A stretch of 64,000 nucleotides of DNA, taken from the NCBI RefSeq assembly GCF_963921235.1, contig NC_086097.1, positions 156,738,001-156,802,000 on the forward strand, written 5' to 3'. The stretch comes from Mobula hypostoma (lineage: Eukaryota). Positions 1,931 to 62,017 of this stretch are shown here, piece after piece (position 1 is the stretch's first letter; every line of letters begins with the position of its first letter). Position numbers and translations under genes: made by a program. The notes below the pieces were generated by a model. The model was given only the letters and a program-made list of their open reading frames with translations, was not told the DNA's origin and did not search any database.

Positions 1931-2137
1931 AGAATGTAACTGAGGGTTAGGTTCTGGGGGTATTAATAAGAATGAGGAGCCGGAGACTTCCGGTAGCGCT
2001 CATGGAGTGAAGTCGCGTTCTTGACTCGCTCCATTACCTCTGAGTTTTTTTACTCTATGGTCAGCTATACTTTAATTAACCATTAAGGCATCAATTTTTA
2101 TAATACTTTGAATTAAACTGAATTCTCTGACAATTGG

Positions 2138-17029: not shown

Positions 17030-18035
17030 TCTGCACTCAGCCCATCTTCCTGCCGCCTTAACAGTGATAGAGTTCCTCTTGTCCTTACCTACCACCCCAT
17101 GAGCTTCCATATCTAACACATCATTCTCCTCAACTTCCACTATCTTCATGGGATCCTGCCACCAAACACCATCTTCATCAATCCCTCTGCTCCATCACCC
17201 TCTGCTTTCCTTATGGAACGCTCCCTCTGTCATTCGCTTGTCTATTCATCCTTCCCCAGTAATCTCCCTGCTGGCACATATCCCTACAAGTGATAGAAAT
17301 GCTGCAACTTCCTTCTCCATCCCCTCCATTCAGGGCCCTCAATACTTCATATCTGAATATGTTGGGATCGTCTATTATATCCAGTGCTCCCAGTGCAGCC
17401 TCCTCTACACTGGTGAGACGCGTCATAATTTAGGAGACTGCTTTGTCAAGAATCTCCAGTTCATCCACCAGAGTGGAATTTTCACAGGGGGCAGCCATTT
17501 TAATTCCTCTCCCCATTCCTATTCTGACATGTCAGTCCATGGCCTCCGCTTTTTGCCATGATGAGGCCACTCTCAGGACAGAGCAGCAACTTCTTATATT
17601 CTGTCTAGGTAGCCTCCCACTTGACGGCATGAACATCAATTACTCCTTCTGTGTTTTTTTCCCTCATTTTTTTCTTTCTCAGATTTTTTGGTTTGATTTT
17701 CCTTTCCCCTTCCCTCTTCTTCTATTCCAAATTCTAGCCTCTTACATCTTCTCCTCACTTGCCGATCACCTCTCCTGATGCCCTTCCTCCCTTTTCTTCC
17801 TTGGTTTACTTTCCTCTCCTATCATATTCCTTCTTTTCCAACCCTTTACCTTTCCCACCCACCTGGTTTCACCTATCACCTTCTAGCTGGCTATCCTTCC
17901 CCTCGCCCTGCATTTTTGTTACAGTGTTTTCCCCTTTCCTTTCCAGTCCTGATGAAAGATTGTGGCCCAAAACGTTTATTCATTTCCATAGATGTTGTCT
18001 GACATGGTGAATTCCTCAGCATTTTGTGTGTGCTG
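17030..18035 (+). mobile_element. Degenerate Penelope-like element 3' part (GIY-YIG, pyrimidine tract, 3' repeat with decayed hammerhead)
   Basis: DRVPLVLTYHP at 17066; IVYYIQCSQCSLLYTGETRHNLGDCF; CAGTCCTGATGA...CCCAAAACGTT at 17944-17976; 3' end homologous to the arms of the mini-insertions. Confidence 0.85.
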
Positions 18036-22631: not shown

Positions 22632-24500
22632 GAATCAGAATCAGGTTTAATATCACCAGAGAAAAACACACTAAATGCTGGAGGAACTCAGCAGGCTATG
22701 AAGCATCTATGGAAAAGAGTACAGTCAACGTTTCAGGCTGAGAGAGTCTTGCCAAAGGGTCTCAGTCTGAAACGTCGACTGTTTGCTCTTTTCCATAGAT
22801 GCTGCCTGGCCTGCTGAGTTCCTCCAGCATTTTGTGTGTGTGTTGCTTGGATTTCTGGCATCTGCAGATTTTCTCTTATTTTTAATATCACCGGCATATG
22901 TCATGAAATTTGCTAATTTAGTGCAGCAGTACAATGAAATACATGATAATATAGAAAAATAAATAAGTAAATTACAATAAGTGCATATGTATATTAAAGA
23001 GTTAAGATAAAAATAGTAGTGCAAAAACAGAAATAAATTTTAAAAAGTGAAGTATTGTCCATTGTGCCACTGTCCATTTAGAAATCAGATGGCAGAAGGG
23101 AAGAAGCTGTTTCTGAATCACTGAGTGTGTGCCATCAGGCTTCTGTACCACCTACCCGATGGGAACAATGAGCGTCCTTAATAATGGATGCTGCCTTTCT
23201 GAGGCACCGCTTAGCTTTTTTCGATTTTGTGCAGTAGCAACCCCCCCCATACCAAACAGTGATGCAGCCTGAATGAATGCTCTCTGTAGTTTTCAAGTGT
23301 TTTAAGTATCAAAACTAAATCTCCTCAAACTTCTGATGAAATATAGCTGCTGTCTTGCCTTATTTATAGCTGCATTGATATGTTGGGACCAGGTTAGGTC
23401 CTCAGAGATATTGTCGCCAAGGAACTTGAAATTGCTCACTCTCTCCATTTCTAATCCCTTTATGAGTATAGGTTTGTGATTCCTCATTTGACCCTTCCTA
23501 AAGTCCACAATCAGCTCTTTGGTCTTACTGAAGCTGAGTGCAAGGTTGTTGCCACAACACTACACAACTAGCTGGTATATCGCACTCCTGTACACCCTCC
23601 CTGCTCCATCTGAAATTCTACCAACAATGGTTGTATCATCTGCAAATTTATAGATGACATTTGAGCTATACCTAGCCACACCGTCATGGGTAAAGGGAGA
23701 GTAGAGCAGTGGGCTAAGCACACACCCCTGAGGTGCACCAGTGTTGGTCATCAGCAAGGAGGAGATGCTATTACCAATTCACACAGATTGTGGTCTTCCG
23801 GTTAGGAAGTCAAAGATCCATTTGTAGGGGGAGGTACAGAGTCCCCGGTTCTGTGGCTTTTTAATCAGGACTGTAGGAATGATGGTGTTACGTACTGAGC
23901 TATAGTTAATGGACAGGTTCCTGACATAAGTGTCTGTATTGTCCAGGCAATCTAAAGCCCTGTGAAGAGTCATTGAGATTGTATCTGCCATAGACCTAGT
24001 TGCTGTCTTTGTTGCTATGAGGCAGGAATTGATTCTAGCCATAACCAGTCTCTCAAAGCATTTCATCACCATAGATGTGAGTGTAACTAGACGGTAGTCA
24101 TTAAGGCAGCTCACACTACTACTCCTATTAGAAATTGATATAATTGTTGCCCTTTTGAAGCAGGTGAGAATTTTTGATCTTAGCAGTGAAAGATTGAAAA
24201 TGTCTTTGAATACACGCACCAATTGGTTTGAACAAGGTTTCAGAGCCTTACCAGGTACTCCACCAGGGCCTGCCGCCTTGCAAGGGTTCAATCTCCTGAA
24301 AGAAAGCGTAACATCAGCTTCTGAGACAGAGGTCAAAGGGTCACTGGGTGCAGAAGGGAACCTCAGAGCTGTAGTTGTATTCTCCTTTTCAAATCAAGTA
24401 CACAGTAAAAGGCTTTGAACTCATCTGGTAGTGAAGCACCACTGCCATTCATGGTGTTGGGTTTTGCTTTATAGAAAGTAATGTCCTTCATACCCAGACA
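22632..24500 (-). mobile_element. Rex1/Babar-like LINE RT fragment with (CTGATT)n tail
   Basis: KAAGPGG, LNDYRLVTLTSMVMKCFERLV, TGAPQGCVLSPLLY, KFADDTTIVG; frameshifted. Confidence 0.85.
22658..22880. mobile_element. Penelope-derived inverted-arm mini-insertion (GGAGGAACTCAGC subfamily)
   Basis: TSD TTTAATATCACC at 22646-22657 and 22881-22892. Confidence 0.85.
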
Positions 24501-25119
24501 TATATTAATCTCTCTTTTTGAACTAAGTAAATGACTGAGCCTCCACAGACTCAAGGATAAAAGTTTTCCAAACATTCACTACCTGAAATGTGCGAACAAT
24601 TCTCCTCGTCTCCTGGTAAGACATTGTTTCTGAATACCCATAATCATGAAACTATGGTCCATGGTTCTAGACTCTTCAGTCAGAGGAAGCAACATCCCTG
24701 CACCTACTCTGTTCAGACCTGTCAGAATTTTATAGCTGTCAATGAGGTTGATACAATAACAAATTATTAAGGTTCATGATACGCTGGCCTTTATTGTAAC
24801 AAGATATGAGTACAATGGATAAAATCCCATTCCCAAATCAAATGGATCCAGAGAATGTATACAGTATACAACCTGAAATTCTTACTCTTTGCAGACACCC
24901 ATGAAAAACAGAACCCAAACACAATGAATGATAGAAAAATGTTAGAACCCCAAAACCGCCTCTCCCCCTTCCCACAAGCAAGCATCAACGCATTGAACTC
25001 CCCTCCCCACATTTGTTTCAGCAAATTGCGTCAGTGGCCACACCCACCAAGCAATAGCAAAGCATCCAAAGAGCAACCATGATCTGTAGTCAACAAAAAC
25101 TATTGTTTACCCAACTGTA

Positions 25120-25333
25120 AGCACGAGGAATTCTGCAGATGCTGGAAATTCAAGTAACACACATCAAAGTTGCTGGTGAATGCAGCAGGCCAGGCAGCAT
25201 CTCTAGGAAGAGGTACAGTCGATGTTTCGGGCCGAGACCCTGACGAAGGGTCTCAGCCTGAAACGTTGACTGTACCATTTCCTAGAGATGCTGCCTGGCC
25301 TGCTGCATTCACCAGCAACTTTGATGTGTGTTG
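25120..25333. mobile_element. Penelope-derived inverted-arm mini-insertion
   Basis: TSD TTGTTTACCCAACTGTA at 25103-25119 and 25331-25347. Confidence 0.9.
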
Positions 25334-25349
25334 TTTACCCAACTGTATT

Positions 25350-28875: not shown

Positions 28876-31290
28876 GTTGGTACTGGACCCCAGGATAGGG
28901 AGTTTGTAGAGTGACTACGGGATGCATTTTTGGAGCAGCTTGTATGAGAGCCGACCAGGGATAAGGCTATTCTGGATTTAGTGTTGAGCAATGAACAGGA
29001 TTTGATAAGTGATCTTGAAGTAAAGGAGCCATTAGGAGGTAGTGACCATAATATGACAAGTTTTTATCTGCAAGTTGAGAGGGATAAGGGCAGATCAGAA
29101 GTGTTAGTATTGCAGTTGAACAAAGGAGACTATGGAGCCATGAGGGAGGAGCTGGCCAAAGTTGACTGGTTGGATATCCTAGCAGAAAAGACAGTGGAAC
29201 AGCAATGGCAGGTATTCTTGGGAATAATGCACAAGGTGCAGAATCAATTCATCCCCCGGAGAAGGAAGGATTCAAAGGGGGGGAAAGTGGCCACAAAGGA
29301 AGTCAGAGATAGCATAGCATTAAAAAAGAAGTATAACAGAGCTAAGGTGAGTGGGAAGACGGATGATTGGGAAATTTTTAAGGAGCAACAGAACTTAACT
29401 AAAAAGGCAATACGGGGAGAAAAAATGAGGTATGAACGCAAGCTAGCTAGGAATATAAAGGAGGATAGCAAAAGTTTTTTTAGGTATGTGAAGAGAAGGA
29501 AGATAGTTAAGAACAATGCTGGGCCCTTGAAGAATGAATTGGGAGAAATTGTTATGGGAAACAGAGAAATGGCAGACGAATTTAATAAGTATTTTGAATC
29601 TGTCTTCACTAGGGAAGACACAAGCAATCTCCCAGATGTATGGATGGGCCAAGGACATAGGGTAACAGAGGAACTGAAACGGATTGACATTAGGAAGGAA
29701 ACGGTGATGAGTAGACTGATGGGACTGAAGGCTAACAAATCCCCAGGTCCAGATGATCTGCATCCTAGGGTACTAAAGGAGGTGGCTCTGGAAATTGCGG
29801 ATGCATTGGTGATCATTTTCCAATGTTCCTTAGATTCAGGATCAGTTCCTGAGGATTGGCGAATGGCTAATGTTATCCCACTTTTTAAGAAAGGAGGGAG
29901 GGAGAAAACAGAGAACTTTCGCCCTGTTAGCCTAATATCAGTAGTGGGGAAGATGCTAGAGTCCATTATTAAAGATGAAATAGTGGCATATCTTGATAGC
30001 AGTGATAAGATTGGGCCGAGCCAGCATGGATTTACCAAGGGCAAATCATGCTTGACTAATCTATTGGAGTTTTTCGAGGATGTAACCAGGACGATAGACG
30101 CGGGAGATCCAGTGGATGTGGTGTACCTTGACTTTCAGAAGGCATTTGATAAGGTACCACATAGGAGATCGGTGGGTAAAATCAGAGCTCATGGCATTGG
30201 GGGGAGGATATTGACATGGATAGAAAACTGGTTGGCAGATAGAAAGCAAAGGGTAGCAGTGAATGGGTGTTTCTCAGAATGACAGGTGGTGACTAGTGGG
30301 GTGCCACAGCTGTTTACGATTTACGTCAATGATTTAGAGGAAGGCATTGTGAATAACATCAGCAAGTTTGCTGATGATACTAAGCTGGGTGGCAGTGTGA
30401 CATGTGATGAGGATGTTAGGAGAAATCAAGGTGACTTGGATAGGCTGGGTGAGTGGGCAGAAACTTGGCAGATGGCATTTAATGTGAATAAGTGTGAGGT
30501 TATTCACTTTGGGAGCAAGAACAGGAAGGCAGATTATCATCTGAAAGGTGTGGAGTTAGGTAAGGGAGAAATACAAAGAGATCTAGGAGTACTTGTTCAT
30601 CAGTCTCTGAAGGTGAATGAGCGAGTGTAGCAGGCAGTGAAGAAGGCTAATGGAATGTTGGCCTTTATTACAAAGGGAATTGAGTACAAAAGCAAGGAAA
30701 TCCTTTTGCATTTGTACAGGGCCCTGGTGAGACCACACCTGGAGTATTGTGTGCAGATTTGGTCTCCAGGGTTAAGGAAGGGCATCCTGGCTGTGGAGGA
30801 GGTGCAGCGTAGGTTCACTAGGTTATTTCCTGGGATGTCCGGACTGTCTTACACAGAGAGGTTAGAGAGACTGGGCTTGTACACGCTGGAATTAAGGAGA
30901 TTGAAGGGGGATCTGATTGAGACATATAAGATTATTAAAGGATTGGACAAGATAGAGGCAGGAAATGCGTTCCAGATGCTGGGAGAGTCCAGTACCGGAG
31001 GGTATGGTTTAAGAATAAGGGGTAGGTCATTTAGGACAGAGTTGAGGAGGAACTTCTTCTCCCAGAGAGTTGTGGAGGTGTGGAATGTGCTGCCTCAGAA
31101 GGCAGTGGAGGCCAATTCTCTGGATGCTTTCAAGAAGGAGCTAGATAGGTATCTTATGGATAGGGGAATCAAGGGTTATGGGGACAAGGCAGGAACCGGG
31201 TATTGATAGTAGATGATCAGCCATGATCTCAGAATGGCGGTGCAGGCTCGAAGGGCCGAATGGTCTACTTCTGCACCTATTGTCTATTGT
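28876..31290 (+). mobile_element. 5'-truncated CR1 LINE, second subfamily
   Basis: LGGSDHN, KSPGPDD, YLDFQKAFD, FADD; in-frame stops; (CTATTGT)n tail; TSD CAAATTG at 28869-28875 and 31291-31297. Confidence 0.95.
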
Positions 31291-31994
31291 CAAATTGTCC
31301 CAATATCTCATTATGAATCACTGCTGTCACCTTACGAATCAGTCCAGTAAACCTTTGCTACAGTTTCTTCATGGTATGAACACCCTTCCTCAGATAAAGA
31401 TACCAAGACTGTACACGTGAATAAGAATCAGATTTATAATCATTGCCACGTATTGCAAACTTCGCTGCTTTGTGACAGCAATGTAGCGCAAAACATAAAA
31501 TATCACTGTAAGGTACAATAAATAAATAAATAAATAGTGTGAAAGAGGAATAGTGATGCAGTGTTTATGGATTCATGGACCAAGCAAAAATCTGATGGCA
31601 GATGGAAGAAGTTGTTCAAAAAAAATTGCATGTTGGTCTACAAGCATTTATACCTCTTCCCTGATGGTAGTTAGTTGCTCTTATATCTTATATTTGGGTC
31701 ACACAGCAGCCTTCCTTCTAATCTGTCACTATTCAGATAATAATCCACCCTTAGACCACAGTGGAGAAACACAATACACTGCATTTGCCCACTCAGTCAA
31801 CATATCCAGAAATACTACAGAACATTTCTGCATCCATGTCAAAGCTCACGCATTAGCCAACTTCGTGTTTCGTACAAAGTTGGAAATTTTATATTTATTT
31901 CTGTCCTGTGAATCACTAAGTTTTACCTTGGATGGCTGAGGATCAAGCACTGAATGCTGAATGCAGCTTGGAAAAGGACCTGTTTATTCCTACA

Positions 31995-32222
31995 AACAAC
32001 AGGAATTCTGCAGATGCTGGAAATTCAAGCAACACACATCAAAGTTGCTGGTGAACGCAGCAGGCCAGGCAGCATCTCTAGGAAGAGGTACAGTTGACGT
32101 TTCAGGCCGAGACCCTTCATCAGGACACTGAGTCCTGACGAAGGGTCTCGGCCTGAAACGTCGACTGTACCTCTTCCTAGAGATGCTGCCTGGCCTGCTG
32201 TGTTCACCAGCAACTTTGATGT
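31995..32222. mobile_element. Penelope-derived inverted-arm mini-insertion with hammerhead motifs on both strands
   Basis: TSD TGTTTATTCCTACA at 31981-31994 and 32220-32233. Confidence 0.9.
32131..32166 (+). ncRNA. Minimal type I hammerhead ribozyme motif (representative copy)
   Basis: AGTC-CTGACGA-AGG gtctcgg CCT-GAAAC-GTC/GACT: stem I AGTC:GACT, core CUGANGA, stem II, GAAA, loopless palindromic stem III (ACGT), predicted GUC cleavage after 32162. Confidence 0.8.
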
Positions 32223-32528
32223 TTATTCCTACACTTGATTTCTTGTCTTCTAACATATTCTCTATCCATGACAGTCCATTAGCCCACAATCCAACATCTT
32301 TTAATTTTGAATATTATTTTCTAAATTAGGATTTTATTGCAAGTCTTTTAAATATTCAAAAGCACCATCTCCATTGAGGTTCACACCCATTCTTTCCTAC
32401 CAGTTCCAGTAAATCTGTCAATCATAATTTCTTTCCTATAAATCAATGCTGATCTTGACTGACTCTATCATTATTTTCTAAGTACTCTGAGTTGTAACTT
32501 TAATTACAGACTCTAGCAATATAAGGCT

Positions 32529-34444: not shown

Positions 34445-35539
34445 TGGACGTCTACATCTGCACCAAGTGCATTGAGATGCAGCTCTTAAGGGACCGCGTT
34501 AGGGAACTGGAGCTGCAGCTCGATGACCTTCGTCTGGTCAGGGAGAGTGGGGAATTGATAGAGAGGAGTTGCAGGCAGGTGGTCACGCCGGGGCCACGGG
34601 AGGCAGACAAGTGGGTCACGGTTAGGAGGGGGAAGGGGAAGAGTCAGGTAATAGGGAGTACCCCGGTGGCTGTGCCCCTTAACAATAGGTACTCCTGTTT
34701 GAGTACTGTTGGGGGGGACAGCTTACCCGGGGGAAGCGACAGTGGCCTTGCCTCCGGCACAGAGTCTGGCCCTGTAGCTCAGAAGGGTAGGGCAAGGAAG
34801 AGGAGGGCAGTTGTGAGAGGGGACTCGATAGTAAGGGACATACATCAAAGTTGCTGGTGAACGCAGCAGGTCAAGCAGCATCTATAGGAAGAGGTGCAGT
34901 CGACATTTCAGGCCGAGACCCTTCGTCAGGACTTACGAAGGGTCTCAGCCTGAAACGTCGACTGCGCCTCTTCCTATAGATGCTGCTTGGCCTGCTGCGT
35001 TCACCAGCAAGTTTGATGTATGTTGCTTGAATTTCCAGCATCTGCAGAATTCGATAGTAAGGGGGTCAGATAGGCGATTCTGTGGACGCAGTCCAGAGAC
35101 CCGGATGGTAGTTTGCCTCCCTGGTGCCAGGGTCCAGGATATTTCTGATTGTGTCCAAGATATCCTGAAGTGGGAGGGTGAGGAGCCAGAGGTCGTGGTA
35201 CATATAGGTACCAATGACATAGGTAGGAAAAGGGATGAGGTCCTGAAAGGAGAATATAAGGAGCTAGGAAGGGAGTTGAGAAAAAGGACCGCAAAGGTAG
35301 TAATCTCGGGATTACTGCCTGTGCCACGCGACAGTGAGAGTAGGAATGCGATGAGGTGGAGGATAAATGCGTGGCTGAGGGATTGGAGCAGGGGGCAGGG
35401 ATTCAAGTTTTTGGATCATTGGGACCTCTTTTGGCGCAGGCGTGACCTGTACAAAAAGGATGGGTTACACTTGAATCCTAGGGGGACCAATATCCTGGCA
35501 GGGAGATTAGCAGGGTCTACTGAGGTGACTTTAAACTAG
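34445..35539 (+). pseudogene. CR1 ORF1p: zinc finger/leucine zipper and SGNH esterase; 5'-truncated and interrupted
   Basis: YICTKC.EMQLLRDRVRELELQLDDL; GDS, VHIGTNDI and DGLHLN esterase blocks. Confidence 0.9.
34838..35050. mobile_element. Penelope-derived inverted-arm mini-insertion inside CR1 ORF1
   Basis: TSD TCGATAGTAAGGG at 34825-34837 and 35051-35063. Confidence 0.92.
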
Positions 35540-35735: not shown

Positions 35736-38560
35736 TTGTATAAGGCTAAGAGTGTTGTAAAAGAGCGCCTGAAGGCTTTGTGTGTCAATGCAAGGAGCAT
35801 TCGTAATAAGGTGGATGAATTGAAAGTGCAGATTGTTATTAATGATTATGATATAGTTGGGAACACAGAGGCATGGCTCCAGTGTGACCAGGGATGGGAG
35901 CTCAACGTTCAGGGATATTCAATATTCAGGAGGGATAGATATGAAGGAAGGGGAGGTGGGGTGGCGTTGCTGGTTAAAGGAGAGATTAACGCAATAGAAA
36001 GGAAGGACATAAGCCGGGAAGATGTGGAATCGATATGGGTAGAGCTGCGTAACACTAAGGGGCAGAAGACGCTGGTGGGAGTTGTGTACAGGCCACCTAA
36101 CAGTAGTAGTGAGGTCGGAGATGGTATTAAACAGGAAATTAGAAATATGTGCAATAAAGGAACAGCAGTTATAATGGGTGACTTCAATCTACATGTAGAT
36201 TGGGTGAACCAAATTGGTAAAGGTGCTGAGGAAGAGGATTTCTTGGAATGTATGCGGGATGGTTTTTTGAACCAACTAGAGAGCAGGCTATTCTGGACTG
36301 GGTTTTGAGCAATGAGGAAGGGTTAATTAGCGATCTTGTCGTGAGAGGCCCCTTGGGTAAGAGTGACCATAATATGGTGGAATTCTTCATTAAGACGGAG
36401 AGTGACATAGTTAATTCAGAAACAAAGGTTCTGAACTTAAAGAGGGGTAACTTTGAAGGTATGAGACGTGAATTAGCTAAGATAGACTGGCAAATGACAC
36501 TTAAAGGATTGATGGTGGATATGCAATGGCAAGCATTTAAAGGTTGCATAGATGAACTACAACAATTGTTCATCCCAGTTTGGCAAAAGAATAAATCAAG
36601 GAAGGTAGTGCACCTGTGGCTGACAAGAGAAATTAGGGATAGTATCAATTCCAAAGAAGAAGCATACAAATTAGCCAGAGAAAGTGGCTCACCTGAGGAC
36701 TGGGAGAAATTCAGAGTTCAGCAGAGGAGGACAAAGGGCTTAATTAGGAAGGGGATAAAAGATTATGAGAGAAAACTGGCAGGGAACATAAAAACTGACT
36801 GTAAAAGCTTTTATAGATATGTAAAAAGGAAAAGACTGGTAAAGACAAATGTAGGTCCCCTGCAGACAGAAACAGGTGAATTGATTATGGGGAGCAAGGA
36901 CATGGCAGACCAATTGAATAATTACTTTGGTTCTGTCTTCACTAAGGAGGACATAAATAATCTTCCAGAAATAGTAGGGGACAGAGGGTCCAGTGAGATG
37001 GAGGTACTAAGCGAAATACATGTTAGTAGGGAAGTGGTGTTAGGTAAATTGAAGGGATTGAAGGCAGATAAATCCCCAGGGCCAGATGGTCTGCATTCTG
37101 GAGTGCTTAAGGAAGTAGCCCAAGAAATAGTGGATGCATTAGTGATAATTTTTCAAAACTCGTTAGATTCTGGACTAGTTCCTGAGGATTGGAGGGTGGC
37201 TAATGTAACTCCACTTTTTAAAAAAGGAGGGAGAGAGAAACCGGGGAATTATAGACCGGTTAGCCTAACGTCGGTGGTGGGGAAACTGCTGGAGTCAGTT
37301 ATCAAAGATGTGATAACAGCACATTTGGAAAGCGGTGAAATGATCGGACAAAGTCAGCATGGATTTGTGAAAGGAAAATCATGTCTGACGAATCTCATAG
37401 AATTTTTTGAGGATGTAACTAGTAGAGTGGATAGGGGAGAACCAGTGGATGTGGTATATTTGGATTTTCAAAAGGCTTTTGACAAGGTCCCACACAGGAG
37501 ATTAGTGTGCAAACTTAAAGCACACGGTATTGGGGGTAAGGTATTGGTGTGGGTGGAGAATTGGTTAGCAGACAGGAAGCAAAGAGTGGGAATAAACGGG
37601 ACCTTTTCAGAATGGCAGGCGGTGACTAGTGGGGTACCGCAAGGCTCAGTGCTGGGACCCCAGTTGTTTACAATATATATTAATGACTTGGATGAGGGAA
37701 TTAAATGCAGCATCTCCAAGTTTGCGGATGATATGAAGCTGGGTGGCAGTGTTAGCTGTGAGGAGGATGCTAAGAGGATGCAGGGTGACTTGGATAGGTT
37801 GGGTGAGTGGGCAAATTCATGGCAGATGCAATTTAATGTGGATAAATGTGAAGTTATCCACTTTGGTGGCAAAAATGGGAAAACAGATTATTATCTGAAT
37901 GGTGGTCGATTAGGAAAAGGGGAGGTGCAACGAGACCTGGGTGTCATTATACACCAGTCATTGAAAGTGGGCATGCAGGTACAGCAGGCGGTGAAAAAGG
38001 CGAATGGTATGCTGGCATTTATAGCGAGAGGATTGGAGTACAGGAGCAGGGAGGTACTACTGCAGTTGTACAAGGCCTTGGTGAGACCACACCCGGAGTA
38101 TTGTGTGCAGTTTTGGTCCCCTAATCTGAGGAAAGACATCCTTGCCATAGAGGGAGTACGAAGAAGGTTCACCAGATTGATTCCTGGGATGGCAGGACTT
38201 TCATATGAAGAAAGACTGGATGAACTGGGCTTGTACTCGTTGGAATTTAGAAGATTGAGGGGGAATCTGATTGAAACGTATAAAATCCTAAAGGGATTGG
38301 ACAGGTTAGATGCAGGAAGATTGTTCCCGATGTTGGGGAAGTCCAGAACGAGGGGCCACAGTTTGAGGATAGGGGGGAAGCCTTTTAGGACCGAGATTAG
38401 GAAAAACTTCTTCACACAGAGATTGGTGAATCTGTGGAATTCTCTGCCACAGGAAACAGTTGGGGCCAGTTCATTGGCTATATTTAAGAGGGAGTTAGAT
38501 ATGGCCCTTGTGGCTACGGGGGTCAGGGGGTATGGAGGGAAGGCTGGGGCGGAGTTCTGA
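35736..38560 (+). pseudogene. CR1 ORF2p (APE EN and RT), frameshifted near 36270 and probably also near 35740
   Basis: NARSIRNK, GGGVALLV, VYRPP, GDFN, SDHN, FADD, WNSLP. Confidence 0.92.
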
Positions 38561-38986
38561 GTTGGATTATCAGCCATGATCATTATAAATGGCGGTGCAG
38601 GCTCGAAGGGCCGAATGGCCTGCTCCTGCACCTATTTTCTATGTTTCTATGCTTCTATGTACTGTTGGTAAAGACTTTTGCACCTTGGCCCCAGAAAGAA
38701 AGCTTGTTTTGTTTGGCTATATTCAGATATGGTTGAATCATAATTAAACTTGAACCTTGAAATTTGAACTTGTAATTTGGTTGAATTGAAGTAACATTCC
38801 TGTTCATTGTGGCAGAGAGGAATAAACAATTGTAGATCACCAACACATTGCTTATATGTTTGCCATTGATAATCTGCCATCAAACTTGTAAGTAAATGTT
38901 CCGTACTTTATCATAGCTACATTAGTCTCCTACCAAGATGGCTTCCTTCATTTCAATTTAGGACCCTCGTCTCCGAATGGAGAAAT

Positions 38987-49045: not shown

Positions 49046-50691
49046 AACCACATCTTGTGAGCTGTGAGGTGGTTTAATCTCGTTATCTGAGCAGAAATGT
49101 TCTTGCAATGATGAAGAGCAGCAAAGCCTAGGCAGGGCTAAAAAATACAGAGATATTTGAATGATTGAGCTTACCTTTAACAGAGCTCAGCTGAATGTTG
49201 ATGGCATCAATGAATCCTGACGCAGAGAGATGTTCCCAGTGGTTGAGAGATTCAGAAACTGAAGGTCACACCCTAAAACCGTGGGCCTGAGTTGAGGAGA
49301 AATTTCTTCACTGAAAGACTGATCCTTTACCACAGAAAGCACTTGATGCCAAATCACTAAATCTTTTCAAGAAGAAGTTAAATGCAGTTCTAAAATCTAA
49401 AGTATTAAAGTAGCATGTGGAGAAAGAAGGAAATGAGCACTGAATTTGAATAATCAATCACAATCATGTTAAATGTTACAATAGGCTGAAAGCGCGGAAT
49501 GCAGTCCTCCTGCTCTAAAATTTCTCTGCTGAACTCCATTGACAAGTTTGCAGTAAATGAAACCGAACATGTTTGTATAATGCAAGTGTTAGACAGCATT
49601 CAAGCATGGCCTGGTGAGTAACAAATATAATTTATAAAATGTATGGTCATCTTCAACAAGAGAGTGAATAAACATCTGTTTGTAATTGTCAGTACGGTTT
49701 CTACCTCTGATTTCCTAAACTTCATCCTTATCTGGTTCACCACTTACTCACCAGAAAGTCACCTGTACCAACCAAGTACTGCAACTATATGAGTAGGTCA
49801 GAAATTGGATACTCTACACCAAATGGCTTACTTCTTACATTCAAAATCCATTCCATCGTTTACAAACCACAAGACAAAAAAAGTGATGGATTTTTTTCCA
49901 CTCAGCTGGATACGTACCAATTGATCCATAGACAGGAAGCTGACAACATCCAGGACACAGCAAGCTGTTCAATTAGTATCCCACCCACCACCTGAATTCT
50001 CTATATCACTATCACAGAGTGATTGTAGTATCTACCAGAACACAGAACATAGAACAGTACAGCAAAGGAACAGACCATTAAACCCATAGTGTTGTCATAG
50101 AATCATAGGGTCATAATAGAGTACTACAGCACTAAAACTGTCTAATGAGTCTATGGCAACCTGGTCTTCTGCCTGGACCCATCAATGCCAAACTAATTAT
50201 AAATAGTTAGTTATAAATAGCTATCTAAACCAATTCTTCAGCCTGCACAGTGTCAATATTCCTCTATTCTTTGCACATTCATATGCTTATCTGAGGGTCG
50301 TTAGATACTATCTACAATATATTCTCCTAGATTATTCCAATGTCATCTTCCAAGCACCATTAAGAAGAAAAAAACCAATAGGTCGTCACTTTACCCTAAA
50401 GACAAAACTGAAGTCAGTTGTTGTTAGAACCTCACATATGAACTTATAACATATCCCTTATCAACATCACAGGTGCAGAGTATCACAGATCCATTCATTA
50501 TTTATGAAGAAGAATGTAGTTGAGTCTCTTTTCCAGGAGCAGCAAGGTATTTAATTCGGACGTTATTGTCAATGATTTAGTATATAGCAAAAACATGTTA
50601 TAAATGTTGCATCATTTGTATTCATTGAAATCCCACATTCTGATTTGATACTTATATTAAATTTACAAATTACTTAAAAACTACTAGTATT

Positions 50692-51530
50692 TTAAGATGT
50701 TTGCTGGCCTGGGCTAGCATCAGTGGCATCAGCAGTTGGTCTGCTACCTGCCCTCAGGGGAAGGAGAGATAAGGAACAATGGAGCAGCGTCTGGAGATGT
50801 GTAATGAAGGGACGGGGGAGAGAGAGCTGTCTGGAGCGGCTCCCCCCTTTGAACCCTGAACTGTTTGAAGTGATGGACAGGCGATACCCCAGCAGGGGGA
50901 TAAAAAGGGACAGGTTCGCTAAGACAGGGACACACGCCACCCGAGGTAACGAGACCCTGGAAGCGGTGCGCCTCTCACGAGTGGGTGAGAAGCATCAGAC
51001 AACGGCCAGGGTGGAAAGGTACGATCAGCGGGAACCCGGTGTGTGTCCGCCCTTGCCTGGGTGCCGGGTTCACTGCAGAGGATCGACCGCATCTGGAGGA
51101 GGGGTCACAGTCGGTGACCTCAGGTGACATCACCAAGGACCCGCCCAAAAGCTGTTTGTGAGCCATCTCGCTGGTCTGTGAGTGAAGCCGTGTTCTGAAT
51201 GATCAGTTGTTCCTATTCTATGTCTCTCTTCCCCCACCTTGTCCATCGCCATGGCAACGATTACTGCGAACTGAACTACTAACTGGACTGAACTTTGAGT
51301 CATTTTGAAATTGGTCATTTACCCCTAGACAACGATAGAGCTTGATTGATGCTGTTATCTTAATTCTGTGCACATGTGCGTTTATCATCGCTGAACTGTT
51401 GCATTTATTATCCTTTCGATTAATGTGTTGCTTGTTTCTTTAATAAAACTTTCTTAGTTCTAGTACTCCAGACTCCAACTGAGTGATCCATTTCTGCTGG
51501 TTTGGCAACCCAGTTACGGGGTACGTAACA
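50692..51530 (+). repeat. 5' LTR, lacking the first 22 bp
   Basis: Matches 54710-55547 with about 7 differences seen by eye; ends CGTAACA. Confidence 0.95.
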
Positions 51531-51534
51531 TAAG

Positions 51535-51560
51535 TGGGGTTCTCGTCCGCGATTTTGAAC
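51535..51560 (+). promoter_or_regulatory. Primer-binding site, imperfect tRNA-Pro complement
   Basis: TGGGGTTCTCGTCCGCGATTTTGAAC versus the canonical TGGGGGCTCGTCCGGGAT. Confidence 0.75.
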
Positions 51561-51629
51561 GCTAAATTTGGGACGGAGTAAATTGATTGGGTTAAAATTC
51601 CCGAAAGAAAGAAAAGACAAACAGCAGAA

Positions 51630-54032
51630 ATGGAGGTTGAGGAATTTATAAAGGCGCCGACCTTGGAGGCATTAGAGGATGCCAGGAAATCGGAATTGAT
51701 AGCTGTGGCCAAACGGGTGAATCGTGCTAAGGTGAAGTCGACAATGAGGAGAGAGGAGATACACAGAGCTATTGTAGAGCACTATGTATCTAAAGGTGTG
51801 TTTCCCCAAGGTGAGCTGGGGGAGGTGTCTATTGAAAAACCTGCTGGAGACGCGGTACAGGTACAGCTTGAAAAACTGAGACTCGAGCACGAGTTCCGGG
51901 TACGGCAGTTAGAACACGAAGAGAAAGAGAGAGAGTTAGAAAGGCGGGAGAGAGAGAAAGAGTTAGAAAGGCGGGAGAAAGAGAGAGAGTTAGAAAGGCG
52001 GGAGAAAGAGAAAGAGGTAGAAAGGCAAGAGAGAGAAAGACAGTTGGAGAGAGAGGAGAAACAGAGGGAAAGGGAATTTGAGCTGGAGAAGTTAAAGATA
52101 AGGGCCGAGCAGGGGCTCGTGCCGAACCAAGGTGGAGGGTTCCGGGCGACCCAGGAGGTTAGGCTGGTTCCCCCATTTGACGATACCAATGTGGATCGGT
52201 ACTTTCTCCATTTCGAAAAGGTGGCTATAAGTCAGGACTGGCCGAGGGATAAGTGGGTTGTTTTACTTCAGAGTGTACTGAAAGGGAAGGCCCAAGAAGC
52301 TTACTCAGCTTTGTCCGCGGAAGATGCCCAGAAGTATGAGGTGGTGAAAGAGGCCATCCTCAGGATTTATGAGTTGGTCCCGGAGGCATACCGGCAGAGG
52401 TTCCGGAATGCGAGGAAGCGGTGGGACCGCACGTATTTGGAGTTTGCTCGTGAGATGCAAACATATTGTGAGCGTTGGTGCGCCTCTAAGGGGGTAGAGG
52501 GGGATTATGACAGACTGCTACAACTGATTCTGATTGAGCAGTTTAAAGGTTGTGTCCCTGAGGGTATGAGACCCTACCTCGATGAGAAAGAGGCAGCCAC
52601 GTTAGCCGCAACTGCTAAGTTAGCGGATGAGTATGCGTTGACGCATAAAATGAAGTTTGCCCCGAGTAAAGGCTACCAGAAGGGTAGTCAGGACGGCGGG
52701 GAGAGTCCGCCGGAAAAGTCAGAAAGTAAGCCGGGGACTAGTGAAAAGGATAAGGTAGACCGGGAGCAGTCTGGTAGGAAGTCTCCTGGGGTCGTCTGTT
52801 ATAATTGTGGGAAAGTCGGACACTTTGCGTCCAGGTGCTTTGCCCCAAGGAAGGAGACGGGGAAAGGAAAAGCGGAAATTTTGAATGGCTGTATCGAGCT
52901 GTTAAGCGAACCGCTAGGGAAGGACAGGTCTGAAAAAGTCCAGGAAGGGCGCGAGAGGTTTATCTCGGCTGGACTGGTGTCAGTGAAAAAGAGGTTAAAA
53001 CCAGTTCCAGTGCGGATCTGGAGAGACACGGGAGCGTGTCAGTCACTAATACTGAAGAGTGTATTAGAGTTTAGCTCAGAGACCCAGACTAGGGAGGTAG
53101 AGGTCAAAGGTGTTGGGGAAGGGACAGAGTCAGTCCCTTTGCACCAGATACATTTACAGAGCAACCTGGTCTCTGGACTAGTCACGATCGGGGTGAGGTC
53201 CGAATTACCGATGAAAGACGTGGAAGTCTTGCTCGGTAATGACATCGCCGGAGGAATCGTGTTCCCAGTCGTGAGATTGACGGGTCAGCCTGCCAGCATG
53301 GAGGCCCCGCCCGCGATGGTGAATTTGGCTGAAACATTTCTGCCAACCTTGTATGAGACAGGGTGTAGTGAGATAAGAGGTAGTGAGGGAGCTGGGACGG
53401 ACGTAGCAGTAGCCAGGAAAGAATTTGTGCAGACGCAGGAGCGAGACGAAGGGCTGATGGTTTTTGCCGAGACCGCTCTCTCTGACACAGCCTTGACAAG
53501 CTATTGTGCGGATGAGGAAGTGCTAAGGAAGAAAGGGAAATCAAGTACAGCATCCGCCGACGAGGAGTGGGGGGTGGTGCAAAAGAGTTATGGGGATGAG
53601 GTTTTTAAAATGGCCCACGAGGTACCCCCCGGTGGACATCTTGCGGTGCTGGAGGAAACAGTTGGTGGAATCATGAAAGAGATTTACCGGCTGCCCAGGG
53701 GGAAGAATGTTATTGATCATGACCGACGCGAACTGAGACGGTCACCGGCTTTTGATATGCTAACAAACCTAGTCGGTGTTAGCGTGGAAATCAATGAAGC
53801 TAGGGGCCCCTTGATAAGAGGAAAAAACCATTTTGAAAAGATTAGGATGGGATCGGTCAGATGGGAGAAGGCTATTGTTTTGGCCAGGTCTACTGATAAG
53901 GTCTCTCCCTTAATCCCCGAACAAAGCGAATCTTTAGAAGGAGTAATTAAACGACTCGCACCTATGTGTTTGATTGTCCCGAGGAAATGCAAAGAACTGG
54001 GACGTTGGGTTATGTCTGTTACAATAGGGTAG
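51630..54032 (+). CDS. Gag (E/R coiled coil, SCAN domain, CCHC knuckle), aspartic protease and vestigial pol
   Basis: 800 aa; PEAYRQRFR...LILIEQF...ADEY (SCAN), CYNCGKVGHFASRC, RDTGA, AHEVPPGGH (first half of the integrase HHCC). Confidence 0.88.
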   Translation: MEVEEFIKAPTLEALEDARKSELIAVAKRVNRAKVKSTMRREEIHRAIVEHYVSKGVFPQGELGEVSIEKPAGDAVQVQLEKLRLEHEFRVRQLEHEEKERELERREREKELERREKERELERREKEKEVERQERERQLEREEKQREREFELEKLKIRAEQGLVPNQGGGFRATQEVRLVPPFDDTNVDRYFLHFEKVAISQDWPRDKWVVLLQSVLKGKAQEAYSALSAEDAQKYEVVKEAILRIYELVPEAYRQRFRNARKRWDRTYLEFAREMQTYCERWCASKGVEGDYDRLLQLILIEQFKGCVPEGMRPYLDEKEAATLAATAKLADEYALTHKMKFAPSKGYQKGSQDGGESPPEKSESKPGTSEKDKVDREQSGRKSPGVVCYNCGKVGHFASRCFAPRKETGKGKAEILNGCIELLSEPLGKDRSEKVQEGRERFISAGLVSVKKRLKPVPVRIWRDTGACQSLILKSVLEFSSETQTREVEVKGVGEGTESVPLHQIHLQSNLVSGLVTIGVRSELPMKDVEVLLGNDIAGGIVFPVVRLTGQPASMEAPPAMVNLAETFLPTLYETGCSEIRGSEGAGTDVAVARKEFVQTQERDEGLMVFAETALSDTALTSYCADEEVLRKKGKSSTASADEEWGVVQKSYGDEVFKMAHEVPPGGHLAVLEETVGGIMKEIYRLPRGKNVIDHDRRELRRSPAFDMLTNLVGVSVEINEARGPLIRGKNHFEKIRMGSVRWEKAIVLARSTDKVSPLIPEQSESLEGVIKRLAPMCLIVPRKCKELGRWVMSVTIG
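51933..52040 (+). repeat. Four 27-bp coding tandem repeats (ELERREREK-like)
   Basis: GAGTTAGAAAGGCGGGAGA... unit repeated. Confidence 0.85.
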
Positions 54033-54567
54033 CCCAGTAAAGAACACTCATATATATTGAGTAATTCAGTGACTAAAGGGCTGATGACCACAGAGGTGTG
54101 TATTGGCAATTTAATACGGCTGTCTGAAGCCAGTTTGATAGTGAACCTTGAAAAAAATGAATTCGGCCACACGAGGGTCACCTACCTGGGAATTGTGGTG
54201 ACACAGGGGCAGCTGGCAGTGATGCAAGCTGCAGTGCAGGCTATCGCTGACCTCCCAACCCCGACAGACAAGAGAGCCCTCAGAAGGCTCTTGGAGATGG
54301 TGGGGTACTGCAGGAAGTTTTGCAATAACTCTGCGGTCAATACCCGTCCCCCTCCTACTAAGCCCTTGCGAAAGAAAATTGAGTCGGAATGGGACGACCC
54401 TTGTTGTTGTGGTCCGGGACAAAACCAAATGAGAGGTTACATTGGTCGCAATTCATCAGTGTTTTTGGCCACTATGAAGTTTGCTGAGTTGGAGCCTGGT
54501 CTAAGGGATTATTAATAACACGTGTAAAAGGAACAGAAAATGTGATGACTGTCTGTCAAGGTGTTGA
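54033..54567 (+). pseudogene. RT and RNase H remnants
   Basis: LIVNLEKNEFGHTRVTYLG, PTPTDKRALRRLLEMVGYCRKF, VKGTENV..DCLSR; no YxDD. Confidence 0.8.
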
Positions 54568-54675
54568 CAGCTTCAAATTCTCTGTATTAGCTAAATAACT
54601 GTTAAAGATGTATATTGTGTATGTATCAGATAATGTAGTCATGTTTGTAATTTTTACCTCCCGGTAAAAATCCTT

Positions 54676-54687
54676 AAAGGGGGGAAG
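54676..54687 (+). promoter_or_regulatory. Polypurine tract
   Basis: AAAGGGGGGAAG directly before the TG of the 3' LTR. Confidence 0.88.
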
Positions 54688-55547
54688 TGTGACGAGAATA
54701 CACATAAAATTAAGATGTTTGCTGGCCTGGGCTAGCATCAGTGGCATCAGCAGTTGGTCTGCTACCTGCCCTCAGGGGAAGGAGAGATAAGGAACAATGG
54801 AGCAGCGTCTGGAGATGTGTAATGAAGGGATGTGGGAGAGAGAGCTGTCTGGAGCGGCTCCCCCCTTTGAACCCTGAACTGTTTGAAGTGATGGACAGGC
54901 GATACCCCAGCAGGGGATAAAAAGGGACAGGTTCGCTAAGACAGGGACACACGCCACCCGAGGTAACGAGACCCTGGAAGCGGTGCGCCTCTCACGAGTG
55001 GGTGAGAAGCATCAGACAACGACAAGGGTGGAAAGGTACGATCAGCGGGAACCCGGTGTGTGTCCGCCCTTGCCTGGGTGCCGGGTTCACTGCAGAGGAT
55101 CGACCACATCTGGAGGAGGGGTCACAGTCGGTGACCTCAGGTGACATCACCAAGGACCCGCCCAAAAGCTGTTTGTGAGCCATCCCGCTGGTCTGTGAGT
55201 GAAGCCGTGTTCTGAATGATCAGTTGTTCCTATTCTATGTCTCTCTTCCCCCACCTTGTCCATCGCCATGGCAACGATTACTGCGAACTGAACTACTAAC
55301 TGGACTGAACTTTGAGTCATTTTGAAATTGGTCATTTACCCCTAGACAACGATAGAGCTTGATTGATGCTGTTATCTTAATTCTGTGCACATGTGCGTTT
55401 ATCATCGCTGAACTGTTGCATTTATTATCCTTTCGATTAATGTGTTGCTTGTTTCTTTAATAAAACTTTCTTAGTTCTAGTACTCCAGACTCCAACTGAG
55501 TGATCCATTTCTGCTGGTTTGGCAACCCAGTTACGGGGTACGTAACA
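54688..55547 (+). repeat. 3' LTR, 860 bp
   Basis: TGTGACG...CGTAACA termini. Confidence 0.96.
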
Positions 55548-56044
55548 AAAACTACTAGTATTTCTTTTTATATGCCACAGTTTAATGCTGATCCATGAAA
55601 TGGCAGAGAGATGAAAATCTATAGCCCCTTATATGACAGCTCATAAAGTTCTTGCAAACAGCACCATAGACTGTAAACAATGAGTCACAAGTGCTAGCAT
55701 TAACACTGGTGTGGACACCAGAGAGTTATCTGTGAATAAATAAGTGATAATAGCCATTTCCCAACTGTTGTTTATATATATATATATATATATATCTGAA
55801 GTAGATGCTATTACAATCTGGTGATTGTCATGAATAGTGCTCTGAAACTTCTAGGGTAAGTTCAATAATCACAAATGTGTGACGGTTACTAGGTTTTGAT
55901 GAATTGCAGTTGGGAGGAGGTATATGGGGAGGATAAACATTGATATGTGATATACCAGATGAACTGAAAGCCTTCTTTAATTTCTATGTAATTGCATAAA
56001 AAAGTTTCTTAAGCTTGTCAGAGCCAGGGAGTTGTGTGGGTGGG

Positions 56045-58555: not shown

Positions 58556-59778
58556 TAACTGGTGTTCTGCAGGGGTCGGTGTTGGGACCACTTCTTTTTA
58601 TGCTGTATATAAATAATTCATATGATAGAACACGCAAACACGAAGAATTCTGCAGATGCTGGAAATTCAAGCAACACACATCAAAATTGCTGGTGAACGC
58701 AGCAGGCCAGGCAGCATCTCTAGGAAGAGGTACAGCTTACGTTTCGGGCCGAGACCCTTCATCCCGACAAAGAGTCTCGGCCGGAAACGTCAACTGTACC
58801 TCTTCCTAGTGATGCTGCCTGGCCTGCTGCATTCACCAGCAACTTTGATGTGTGTTATTATATGATAGAATAGATGGCTTTGTTGTCAAGTTTGCAGTTG
58901 ATATGAAGATTAATGGAGTGGTAGGTAGTGTTGAGGAAACAGGTAGGATGCAGAAGGACTTAGACAGATTAGGAGAATGAGCAAGAGAATGGAAAATAAA
59001 ATACAACGTTGGAAAATGCATGGTCATGCACTTTGGTAGTAGAAACAAATGTGCAGTCTATTTTCTAAATGAGGAGAAAATCCAGGAATCTGAGATGCAG
59101 AGGGACTTAGGCATCCTTGTGCAGAACACTCTGAAGGTTAGTCAGTGGTGAAGAAGGCAAATATCATTTCAGCATTCATTTCAAGTGGTCTAGAATACAA
59201 CAGCAAGGATGTGATTCTGAGGCTTTATAAGGCCTCACCTTGAGTATTGTGAACAGTTTTGGGCCCCTCATCTTAATAAAGATGTGCTGGCATTGGAGAT
59301 AGTTCAGAGGAGGTTCACAAGGATAATTCCAGGAATGAACGGGTTACCATACGAGGAACGCTTGATGGCTCCGGGTCTGTACTCGCTCGAATTCAGAAGG
59401 ATGAGGGAGAATCTCATTGAAACCTTTCAAATGTTGAAAGGCGAAGGATGTTTCCCGTGGTAGGAGAGTCTACGGCAAGAGGGCACAGCCTCAGGATAGA
59501 GGGGCACCTTTTCAAAACAGAGATGCAGAGAAATGTCTTTAGCCAAAGGGTGGTGAATTTGTGGAATTTGTTGCCATATGCAGCTCTGGAGGCCAGGTTG
59601 TTGTATTTAAGGTAGATATTGATAGGTTCTTGATTGGCCATGGCATCAAAGGTTACGGGGAGAAGTCCGGGAACTGGAGTTGAGGAGGAGTAAGCAAAAA
59701 AGGATCAGCCATGATTGAATGGCGAAGCAGACTTGATGGGCCAGATGGCCTAATTCTGCTCCTATGTCTTGTGGTCTT
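58556..59778 (+). mobile_element. Degenerate CR1 RT and 3' end
   Basis: GVLQGSVLGPLLFMLYIN, KCMVMHFG, CR1 3'UTR. Confidence 0.85.
58631..58857. mobile_element. Penelope-derived inverted-arm mini-insertion inside CR1 RT
   Basis: TSD ATATGATAGAA at 58620-58630 and 58860-58870. Confidence 0.88.
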
Positions 59779-60009: not shown

Positions 60010-61567
60010 CTGAGAAGTGACTTAGATACACTCAAATTTGCGTAACAGAGCAACAGGTGCCATTTCATTGGCTATTCACTCAACGCTGGAAAATCTGGAG
60101 AGCAAAGGTGCATACATCAGGATGCTCTTTATCAATTATAGCTCTTCATTCAATACACCCCATCAAAACTAATCAATAAGCTGCTAGGCATTGGCTTCAA
60201 TGCATCCTTGGGCAATTGGATCCTTGATTTTCTCACTTGCAGACCCCAGTCAGTTCAGTTCGGCAACAATATCTCCTCCACAATCTCCATCAGCACAGAT
60301 GCACCACAAGGCCGTGTGCTTAGCGCTTGCTCTGCTCACATTACACTTATGACTGTGTGCCTAAGCATAGCCCCAGTGCCTTATAAATCAATATATACTG
60401 TAGGAGGAAGATTAAAAATCTGGCTGATTGGTGCTATAACAACAATATCTTACTCAATGTAAGCAAGACCAAAGAGCTGATTATTGACGTCAGTAGAGGA
60501 AATAAACCAGAGGTCATAAGCCAGTCCTCATGGGGGGATTAAAGGTGGAGAGGGTCAGCATCTCTAAATTCCTCAGTGTTATTATTTCAGAGGACCTTTC
60601 TGAACCCAGCTCGTAAGTGCAATTAGGAAGAAAGCACAGCAGCACCTCTACTTCCTTACAAATTTTCAAAGATTCAGCATGACATCTAAAACTTTGACAA
60701 ACTTCTGTGGATGCGTAGTGGAGAGTGTATTGACTGGCTGCTTCACAGCCTGGTATGGAAACATCAAATTCCTTGAACAGAATATCCTACACAAAGTAAT
60801 GGATACAGACAAGTCCATCATGGGTAAAGCCCTCCTCAGCATTGAGCACATCTACATGAAACACTGTTGCAGAAAGGAAGCACCCATCTTCAGCGACCCT
60901 CACCATACAGGACACGCTCACGTCTCACTGCTGCCATCAGAAAGAAGGTACAGGAGTCTCAGGACTCACACCACTAGGTTTAAGAATAGCTCCTACTCCT
61001 CAACCATCAGGCTCTGGAACTAAAGTTGATAATATTACTCAAGCAACACACATCAAAGTTGCTGGTGAACGCAGCAGGCCAGGCAGCATCTCTAGGAAGA
61101 GGTACAGTCGACATTTCGGGCCGAGACCCTTCAACAGGAGGGTCCTGACGAAGGGTCTCAGCCCGAAACGTCGACTGTACCTCCCTAGAGATGCTGCCTG
61201 GCCTGCTGTGTTCATCAGCAACTTTGATGTGTGGTGCTTGAATTTCCAGCATCTGCAGAATTCCTCGTATTTACGTTTTTAATATCACTCAACTTCACTT
61301 GTCCAATTACTGAACTATTCCCACAACCTATGGACACATTTTCAAGGATTCTTCATCTCATGTACTTGATACTTATTGCTTATTTCTTTCTTTTTGTATT
61401 TGCACAGTATGTTATTGTTTTTCACACTGGTTGAAAGTTGGTGTGGTTTTTCAATGAATCTGTAAGTTTTTTTTTATGGATTTAATGAGTATGCCCACAA
61501 GAAAATGAATCATGGGGTTGTATATGGTGACATACATGTACTTTGATAATAAATTTACTTTGAACTT
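60010..61567 (+). mobile_element. Degenerate Rex1/Babar-like LINE
   Basis: [35 protein letters not shown]; ends TTTACTTTGAACTT like 18430. Confidence 0.8.
61040..61279. mobile_element. Penelope-derived inverted-arm mini-insertion with hammerhead motif (61142-61175, +)
   Basis: TSD TAATATYACTCAA at 61030-61042 and 61280-61292, one mismatch. Confidence 0.88.
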
Positions 61568-61645
61568 CGTTTAAATTCATGTTACCTGCAATTTATTTTT
61601 CAACTGGTGTTGATACAGAAGGAAAAAAAATCACCTGCAATGTCC

Positions 61646-61742
61646 CAATATACATCAAAGTTGCTGGTGAACGCAGCAGGCCAAGCAGCATCTATAGGAA
61701 GAGGTGCAGTCGACGTTTCAGGCCGAGACCCTTCGTCAGGAC
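61646..61742 (-). mobile_element. Single-arm Penelope 3'-end insertion with intact hammerhead motif (61709-61742)
   Basis: TSD ACCTGCAATGTCC at 61633-61645 and 61741-61753. Confidence 0.88.
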
Positions 61743-62017
61743 CTGCAATGTCCATTTACTTTGCTTCTGTGTTTCTTCAAAAGTAAAGTTAAATTGTAAA
61801 GATGTAGAATGCAGGTCAACATTTTCATTGCAACTGTCATTGCCAATATTGAAATAACTAAAGTAACTGGGCCCAGAACACATGCTCTCTTATGACTCAA
61901 ACATATTGTATTTGCTTGGGCAAAAGGAGAACAGTATGGCCCCTGTCACACACACACTTTCCTGAATTCAGGACAGGAGACTTATTTTTATACAGCTTTG
62001 GCTTGTCAGTTATAGAT

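Follow-up and report, generated by a model that had tools for sequence, protein, structure and literature searches.

Ty3/Gypsy retrotransposons usually leave a target duplication of 4-6 bp, and their long terminal repeats (LTRs) end in TG...CA. A long duplication beside one clipped end is already known for retroviruses and endogenous retroviruses (ERVs). Comparable aberrant integrations have been described for HIV-1 under strand-transfer inhibitors or with a weak integrase, and for ASLV with a mutated end as cited in the same paper (PMC5041404). In the integrase-impaired HIV set of its supplement, the upstream LTR is clipped by 3-23 bp, the downstream LTR is normal and host DNA is duplicated in 7 of 67 aberrant proviruses by our own count, and one of the seven has a 23-bp clip (PMC5041404 supplement). 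The model given there is that one end is inserted by integrase and the other by host enzymes (PMC5041404). The XMRV clone C-3, one of 15 sites, carries a 5-bp U3 deletion in its left LTR, a normal other end and a 273-bp duplication (PMC2857682), while for HERV-K duplications of more than 10 bp were reported in 8/451, two of them being 13 and 18 bp (PMC5488345). Here, an LTR element is described from a stretch of 64,000 nt of Mobula hypostoma (NC_086097.1, positions 156,738,001 to 156,802,000), which is called the window and whose coordinates are used throughout. The locus is a real aberrant insertion, probably a one-off, in an abundant and defective Gmr1-like Ty3/Gypsy family. Our favoured reading, to which we give a probability of about 0.5, is a single event in which integrase joined only the U5 end of this high-copy, non-autonomous element and host repair joined the U3 end.

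A window search found AAAAACTACTAGTATTT as an exact 17-nt repeat on either side of the element (Table 1), with no further copy on either strand of the 64,000 nt. The first-pass annotation, made from the sequence alone, had reported a flanking duplication of 16-17 bp. One base at each junction, T at 50692 and A at 55547, may belong to host or element; the annotation had allowed for the A and overlooked the T. With one shared base per junction, the duplication is 15-17 nt and the 5' clip 22-23 nt, so that the reported length stands within this range. The other structural claims held as well: the 5' LTR lacks its first 22-23 nt relative to the 3' LTR, the 3' LTR stops exactly at CA, no poly(A) is present at the 3' end apart from the four A of the duplication itself, and the target site reads TT/AAAAA when the A at 55547 is counted as target. 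By local base frequencies, two fixed positions would agree exactly over 15 nt with a probability of about 4e-9, and at least 15 nt were in common in 2 of 20,000 random pairs of 40-nt windows at equal spacing, a sampling that included the LTR element itself. The TG...CA at both outer ends and the 4-6-bp duplication of a canonical integrase insertion are not seen at this locus.

From LTR nt 23 onwards, the 5' LTR aligns to the 860-nt 3' LTR with 6 substitutions and 1 indel, giving an inter-LTR divergence of 7 differences in 839 nt (about 0.8%). A TATA-like motif lies at LTR nt 230, and 83 nt lie beyond AATAAA to the LTR end. Since nearly all of U3 is kept at the left and U5 is complete at the right, the template was a finished two-LTR complementary DNA (cDNA). 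The annotation had likewise called for finished cDNA rather than mRNA, in agreement with the roughly 840 nt of 5' LTR and all 83 nt past AATAAA that are retained. Ordinary mRNA retroposition was considered and is ruled out by this LTR structure, which includes about 200 nt upstream of the TATA-like motif, the motifs being taken in their presumed roles.

The annotation had also proposed to confirm both junctions in reads and to look for an empty allele with one copy of the 16-mer. Nine runs carry the left flank wholly or partly: four from the source sample, four from a related organism, B (one sample), and one with a small share (X9, 0.07). Contigs from two of the four source runs (X1 and X3) and two of the four organism B runs were aligned on 49700-54760, with X9 and X10-12 (share 0.00) left out; the 3' junction lies beyond this stretch. 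In both X1 and X3, a single 677-nt contig matches 50044-50720 letter for letter and without gaps and extends 28 nt past the clipped junction into the LTR, unbranched there, so that the 5' half of the junction claim is borne out in contigs, although X1 and X3 may be the assembly's own data and hence not independent of it. The depth of this junction contig is near that of the neighbouring flank contig (12.5 vs 15.4 and 6.85 vs 6.82), which suggests that the insertion is present on both chromosomes of the source sample. In organism B, both runs gave a 1179-nt contig that aligns to 50044-50692 with 20 letter differences and 11 gaps; its match breaks off precisely where the left repeat ends, and a 537-nt run-on unlike the element follows. 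Because it departs exactly at 50692, the repeat sequence belonged to the host, and the orthologous site in organism B is apparently empty. That a single copy of the 17-mer stands there we infer from where the match ends, the letters of the run-on being unread. An insertion later than the split between the source and organism B fits the divergence of about 3% between the organisms vs 0.8% between the LTRs.

The family to which the element belongs is very abundant. Aligned contigs numbered 42,391 and 33,451 in the source runs and 10,342 and 10,932 in organism B, nearly all of them on the element, with high depth over its entire internal region. The summed depth in the source runs was about 1e6 on the LTR and 2-5e5 inside, against 7-15 on the unique flank, which is a measure of abundance and not a copy number. 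At the CA of the LTR, 141 contigs in X1 and 132 in X3 depart into mixed flanks (agreement 0.37 and 0.36), and the pooled 3' flank consensus of these copies begins GTAG or CTAG and then is A/T-rich, not an A-run. As many loci share the CA end and collectively have no adjoining A-run, the aberrant route is probably not the usual one of the family. This family evidence consists of the pooled 3' consensus, and it fits integrase as the usual route. The idea of a recurrent system, raised in the annotation, therefore found no echo in the other copies, which share the CA end but whose flanks begin GTAG/CTAG and not AAAA.

Other traces of the family were sought in the window and in public sequence. No other copy of the LTR was found in the window, and six candidate solo LTRs with short duplications were dismissed as chance, 12 block-shuffled controls giving 1-6. 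A loose end at the clip site was absent among the 24 of 1628 rows listed; so was the one that the normal LTR start (54688) should give, which makes the absence uninformative on recurrence. A 20-nt exact pattern of the LTR start had 0 matches in viral contigs, its one match to a metagenome contig was discarded as an unrelated chance match (only 23 nt align), and a 27-nt pattern of the LTR end had 0 matches in prokaryote genomes. The pooled flanks at 51530 give a weak hint of a palindromic 4-bp target preference, (G/C)TA(G/C); the chance of a G or C plurality per flank position is 0.03-10%, depending on the composition assumed. Four contigs in X1 and three in X3 join the LTR CA end (51530) to the LTR start (54688), and one contig in each joins it to 54685. 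Such joints may stem from LTRs repeated head to tail, from circle junctions that became integrated or from insertions lying close together; they are not among the 15 of 35 joints listed for organism B. In addition, some family LTRs in all four runs have an internal tandem duplication of about 95 nt (50790-50885).

By its sequence, the element is non-autonomous with a defective pol. Its long frame contains SCAN (Pfam, E 1.1e-12) and zf-CCHC (E 4.3e-6) domains and a protease-like DTG motif recognised by eye, and it aligns to residues 1-749 of protein P0001 with 37% identity. The Integrase_H2C2 domain of P0001 spans residues 714-770 and its integrase core 792-886. For residues 750-1337 and 1433-1549 of P0001 the element has no significant match, and the integrase core, most of the reverse transcriptase (RT) and the RNase H were not found in this comparison, so that the intact enzymes of an autonomous Gypsy element are not all present. 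About 430 nt at 53688-54116 have no significant match to five full-length relatives and are probably a decayed linker between integrase and RT. Within gag, a 27-nt tandem repeat of 5.4 copies at 51921-52066 encodes a stretch rich in E, R and K. We take the stretch after the 5' LTR to resemble a tRNA-Pro primer site.

The best 120 of the 315 long relatives of the frame are Gag-Pol proteins. The domain order SCAN, integrase, RT and RNase H was found in both of the best full-length relatives scanned, and the remnants of the element follow it against 5/5 relatives aligned: the match covers Gag, protease and the beginning of the integrase zinc finger and resumes only for 96 residues where RT meets RNase H. 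The element has a SCAN-type capsid domain with a CCHC knuckle, two LTRs, a primer site and a polypurine tract. Judged by domain content and order rather than by an RT or integrase tree, it is a Gmr1-like Ty3/Gypsy element. The pol order of Gmr1 is protease, integrase, RT and RNase H (PMC2582038), and the SCAN domain occurs in Gmr elements (PMC4131045).

Table 1. Features of the insertion and palindromic inserts in the window.
Feature	Position	Strand	Basis or remark
Left copy of target duplication	50676..50692	.	Starts TT/AAAAA; last T may be LTR nt 23; organism B contig matches to 50692, then departs
5' LTR without first 22-23 nt (U3 end), ends CA	50692..51530	+	LTR alignment; junction crossed by contig with 0 differences in 2/2 source-sample runs
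4-nt spacer TAAG and primer-binding-site-like stretch	51531..51556	+	Sequence
800-codon frame: Gag (SCAN-type capsid domain, CCHC knuckle), protease-like DTG motif, integrase zinc finger start, then decayed	51630..54032	+	Pfam, P0001 alignment
Remnant: RT end and connection to RNase H, 96 codons	54117..54404	+	P0001 residues 1338-1432, 54%, E 3e-26
Polypurine tract, abuts 3' LTR	54676..54687	+	Sequence
Complete 3' LTR, 860 nt, TG...CA; AATAAA at LTR nt 772-777	54688..55547	+	LTR alignment; family contigs depart at same CA
Right copy of target duplication	55547..55563	.	First A may be last base of LTR; from assembly sequence
Palindromic inserts	13275-13502, 22646-22892, 25103-25347, 31981-32233, 34825-35063, 58620-58872, 61030-61292, 61633-61753		Sequence

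Long duplications are also left in the window by elements of other classes. A near full-length L1 at 1968-7909 including its duplication (element 1982-7895) served as an in-window control; it has open reading frame (ORF) 1 at 2117-3037 and ORF2, split over two frames, at 3616-7534. It encodes ORF1, endonuclease and RT domains, is flanked by a duplication of 14 nt at T/AAGA and ends in an A-rich tail past AATAAA. Palindromic inserts of about 210-250 nt with variable ends, one being a 95-nt half unit, amount to about 11 pieces in the window. Eight were examined: six have exact duplications of 12-17 nt, two have 13 nt with one mismatch, and none starts with TT/AAAA. The length found at our element is thus typical of two non-LTR machineries here, in line with the LINE- or Penelope-type break that the annotation had proposed (LINE, long interspersed nuclear element), and its motif is characteristic of L1. 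Three further LINE copies (10230-12564, 28948-31287 and 36230-38654), two of them 95% alike, are presumably CR1-like from the type of their ORF2.

As to the nature of the palindromic inserts, one palindromic arm (17945-18035) follows a decayed frame (17103-17561) that scores 0.93 to a GIY-YIG Atlas cluster, in which 20% of the members carry that family; Pfam found nothing in this frame. Rfam found 0 families in the window, hence no hammerhead support. That the inserts are inverted 3' ends of a Penelope-like element is a lead. Insertions of such elements are described as forming inverted repeats (PMC8557442), and duplication lengths for them were not found in the accessible parts of PMC4209133 or PMC8557442.

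For the favoured reading, one-ended integration, we infer the steps from the structure of the locus. An autonomous relative would supply the particle in which reverse transcription ran to its normal end, and integrase would strip the 4 nt between the CA and the primer site. Only the U5 end, that of the 3' LTR, would then be joined, to the top strand, and the untransferred U3 end would be trimmed by 22-23 nt. About 16 nt of adjoining host DNA may have been copied by extension of a free host 3' end or of a free cDNA end, as in the published model, before host repair joined the trimmed U3 end at a one-base overlap and so produced the long duplication. TT/AAAA would then have been met at this A/T-rich site by coincidence. 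The U5 end stops precisely at CA and the TAAG spacer is gone, so integrase probably processed that end. The locus has the two marks expected of such an event: one outer end is exact, the 3' LTR stopping at the CA common to the 141 and 132 family contigs, and the other end is truncated beside a host duplication. We rank one-ended integration first on the ground that this exact architecture was seen in 7/67 HIV and 1/15 XMRV proviruses.

Several points weigh against it. In the HIV tables, 0/39 host duplications are of 11-35 bp by our own count, and those with like architecture measure 167 bp to 1.6 kb, one being unsized (PMC5041404 supplement); aberrant integration was 0/99 and 0/85 for untreated wild-type HIV (PMC5041404). 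TT/AAAA at the junction is expected at 0.15% of positions (192/128,000, two registers), and the relaxed motif at 1.5%. LINE-type insertions, among them the L1 of the window (14 nt, T/AAGA), have the same polarity, with the 3' end of the element at the A-run, and duplications of matching length. If the family prefers (G/C)TA(G/C), which is weakly hinted, AAAA is not a favoured integrase site, and the HERV-K authors warn that long duplications may be later rearrangements (PMC5488345). The duplication does contain CTAC and CTAG, in keeping with the hinted preference; an insertion there was set aside, since 13% of local 17-mers contain such a site and both ends would need rebuilding. The overlap at the repaired 5' junction is a single base, a length frequent by chance, and speaks neither for nor against this reading.

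The alternative closest to one-ended integration, which we rank second as a serious rival and which the annotation had named first, is that finished cDNA was captured at a LINE-type staggered break. The L1 endonuclease would cut the bottom strand at TT/AAAA and, some 16 nt from there, the top strand, and a full-length, probably integrase-processed cDNA would be end-joined into the 3' overhangs through one-base pairing at each end, with trimming of the U3 end. An L1 nick would account for the motif, the polarity and the length alike; the same window contains the L1 described above, which encodes the three domains and has its own 14-nt duplication at T/AAGA, and the 12-17-nt duplications of the palindromic inserts indicate that staggered breaks of this size are common in the genome. 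Priming on 3' overhangs would also fit the single base shared at each junction, although such an overlap arises often by chance in A/T-rich DNA. LTR-element cDNA has been captured at induced breaks in mouse zygotes, but the captures described there have lost sequence from both ends and mostly carry neither LTRs nor duplications (PMC4516963), whereas the U5 end is exact here. Integrase-free insertion is also rare, at 1e-4 to 0.1% of normal and mostly without duplications (PMC11042837), and the family flanks do not begin with an A-run. A literature search, covering the titles and abstract openings of the hits listed, turned up neither a vertebrate Gypsy element with a long duplication and one clipped end nor a two-LTR cDNA seated, with a duplication, at an L1 site. 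When these rates are set roughly against how rare the motif is, one-ended integration and capture come within few-fold of each other, and both yield an identical final sequence at a single locus, so that the sequence of the locus does not separate them. The two routes offered in the annotation, capture at a break and one-ended integration, thus both remain in the lead, with one-ended integration now placed above capture.

An unlikely course of events is that the element first acquired a normal 4-5-bp duplication (AAAA or AAAAC) and that its 5' junction broke later, the left flank copying 11-12 nt from the empty homologue or the right flank and rejoining the LTR minus 22-23 nt. The sequence parses equally well in this way, the first bases of the repeat being the short duplication and the other 11-12 nt replacing the LTR start, and no integrase failure is needed; yet a young insertion (7 differences in 839 nt) would have had to undergo another event only a few bases from its junction, and TT/AAAA is still a coincidence. 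The source contigs are unbranched at the junction and no intact-ended allele was seen in them, though contigs drop rare variants. More doubtful is target-primed reverse transcription by L1 of a read-through RNA over the whole donor, primed on A beyond the donor 3' LTR and truncated inside the 5' LTR. L1 insertions are typified by TT/AAAA, a duplication of 15-17 nt and truncation at the 5' end, and L1 does mobilise ERV RNA, but L1-processed ERV copies have the form R-U5...U3-R with poly(A) (PMC5016936). At our element, where TT/AAAA and a duplication of the variable-length kind are present, neither the R-U5...U3-R form nor poly(A) is seen: nearly all of the left U3 and all of the right U5 are kept, no tail follows, and both RNA ends would need to hit the element ends by chance. 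Least credible is an assembly artefact, or a tandem duplication that pre-existed at the site before a normal or duplication-free insertion. It draws on the contig alignment that stops short of the 3' junction, the unread run-on of organism B and the source runs that may be the assembly's data; it has to face the clipped junction in one unbranched, error-free contig in 2/2 source runs and the organism B match ending exactly at 50692 in 2/2 runs, and a prior duplication would leave the clip unexplained.

As a one-off, the locus would be a clean germ-line fossil of failed concerted integration in Ty3/Gypsy, an event class worked out in retroviruses. Such copies exist, and LTR finders that require TG...CA and 4-6 bp would miss or mis-bound them. 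We think it very unlikely that finished and processed Gypsy cDNA repeatedly joins L1- or Penelope-like staggered nicks in a genome so rich in retroelements, so that a minority of whole LTR elements, this copy among them, would carry LINE-type signatures. If duplications of 10-20 bp at TT/AAAA peaked across the family, LINE endonuclease breaks would be a real entry point for whole LTR cDNA, and such a recurrent route, if true, would give LTR elements an additional way in that crosses element classes. With so abundant a family, one assembly would suffice for examining its junction habit.

Compared with known systems, the element resembles Gmr1-like Ty3/Gypsy elements in its SCAN-type Gag, zinc knuckle, integrase zinc finger directly past the protease and RT remnant next, and differs from them in that the integrase core, most of the RT and the RNase H are absent, the left end has no TG and the duplication is 15-17 bp. 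The L1-processed ERV pseudogenes of the HERV-W type share with it the TT/AAAA site, a duplication of variable length and 5' truncation; however, they are without the left U3 and the right U5 and carry poly(A) (PMC5016936), whereas our element keeps both and has no tail. In cDNA capture at double-strand breaks (PMC4516963), and for integrase-free Tf1 and HIV (PMC11042837), host repair likewise joins retroelement cDNA via short overlaps, but the captured pieces are truncated fragments, mostly without LTRs or duplications (PMC4516963), while ours is nearly whole with one exact end. The HERV-K (HML-2) copies with duplications over 10 bp are, like ours, germ-line LTR elements, although the 13- and 18-bp cases are solo LTRs whose repeats contain mismatches and whose empty site is unconfirmed in the published account (PMC5488345). 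The aberrant retroviral integrations of XMRV C-3, HIV-1 and ASLV differ in that they arose in infected cell lines and ours is a germ-line Ty3/Gypsy fossil, with a duplication of 15-17 bp that is absent among the 39 of HIV and an L1-like motif. With them the locus shares one exact LTR end, a truncated upstream U3 end, an over-long host duplication and perhaps, from the single base seen here, a short overlap at the repaired junction.

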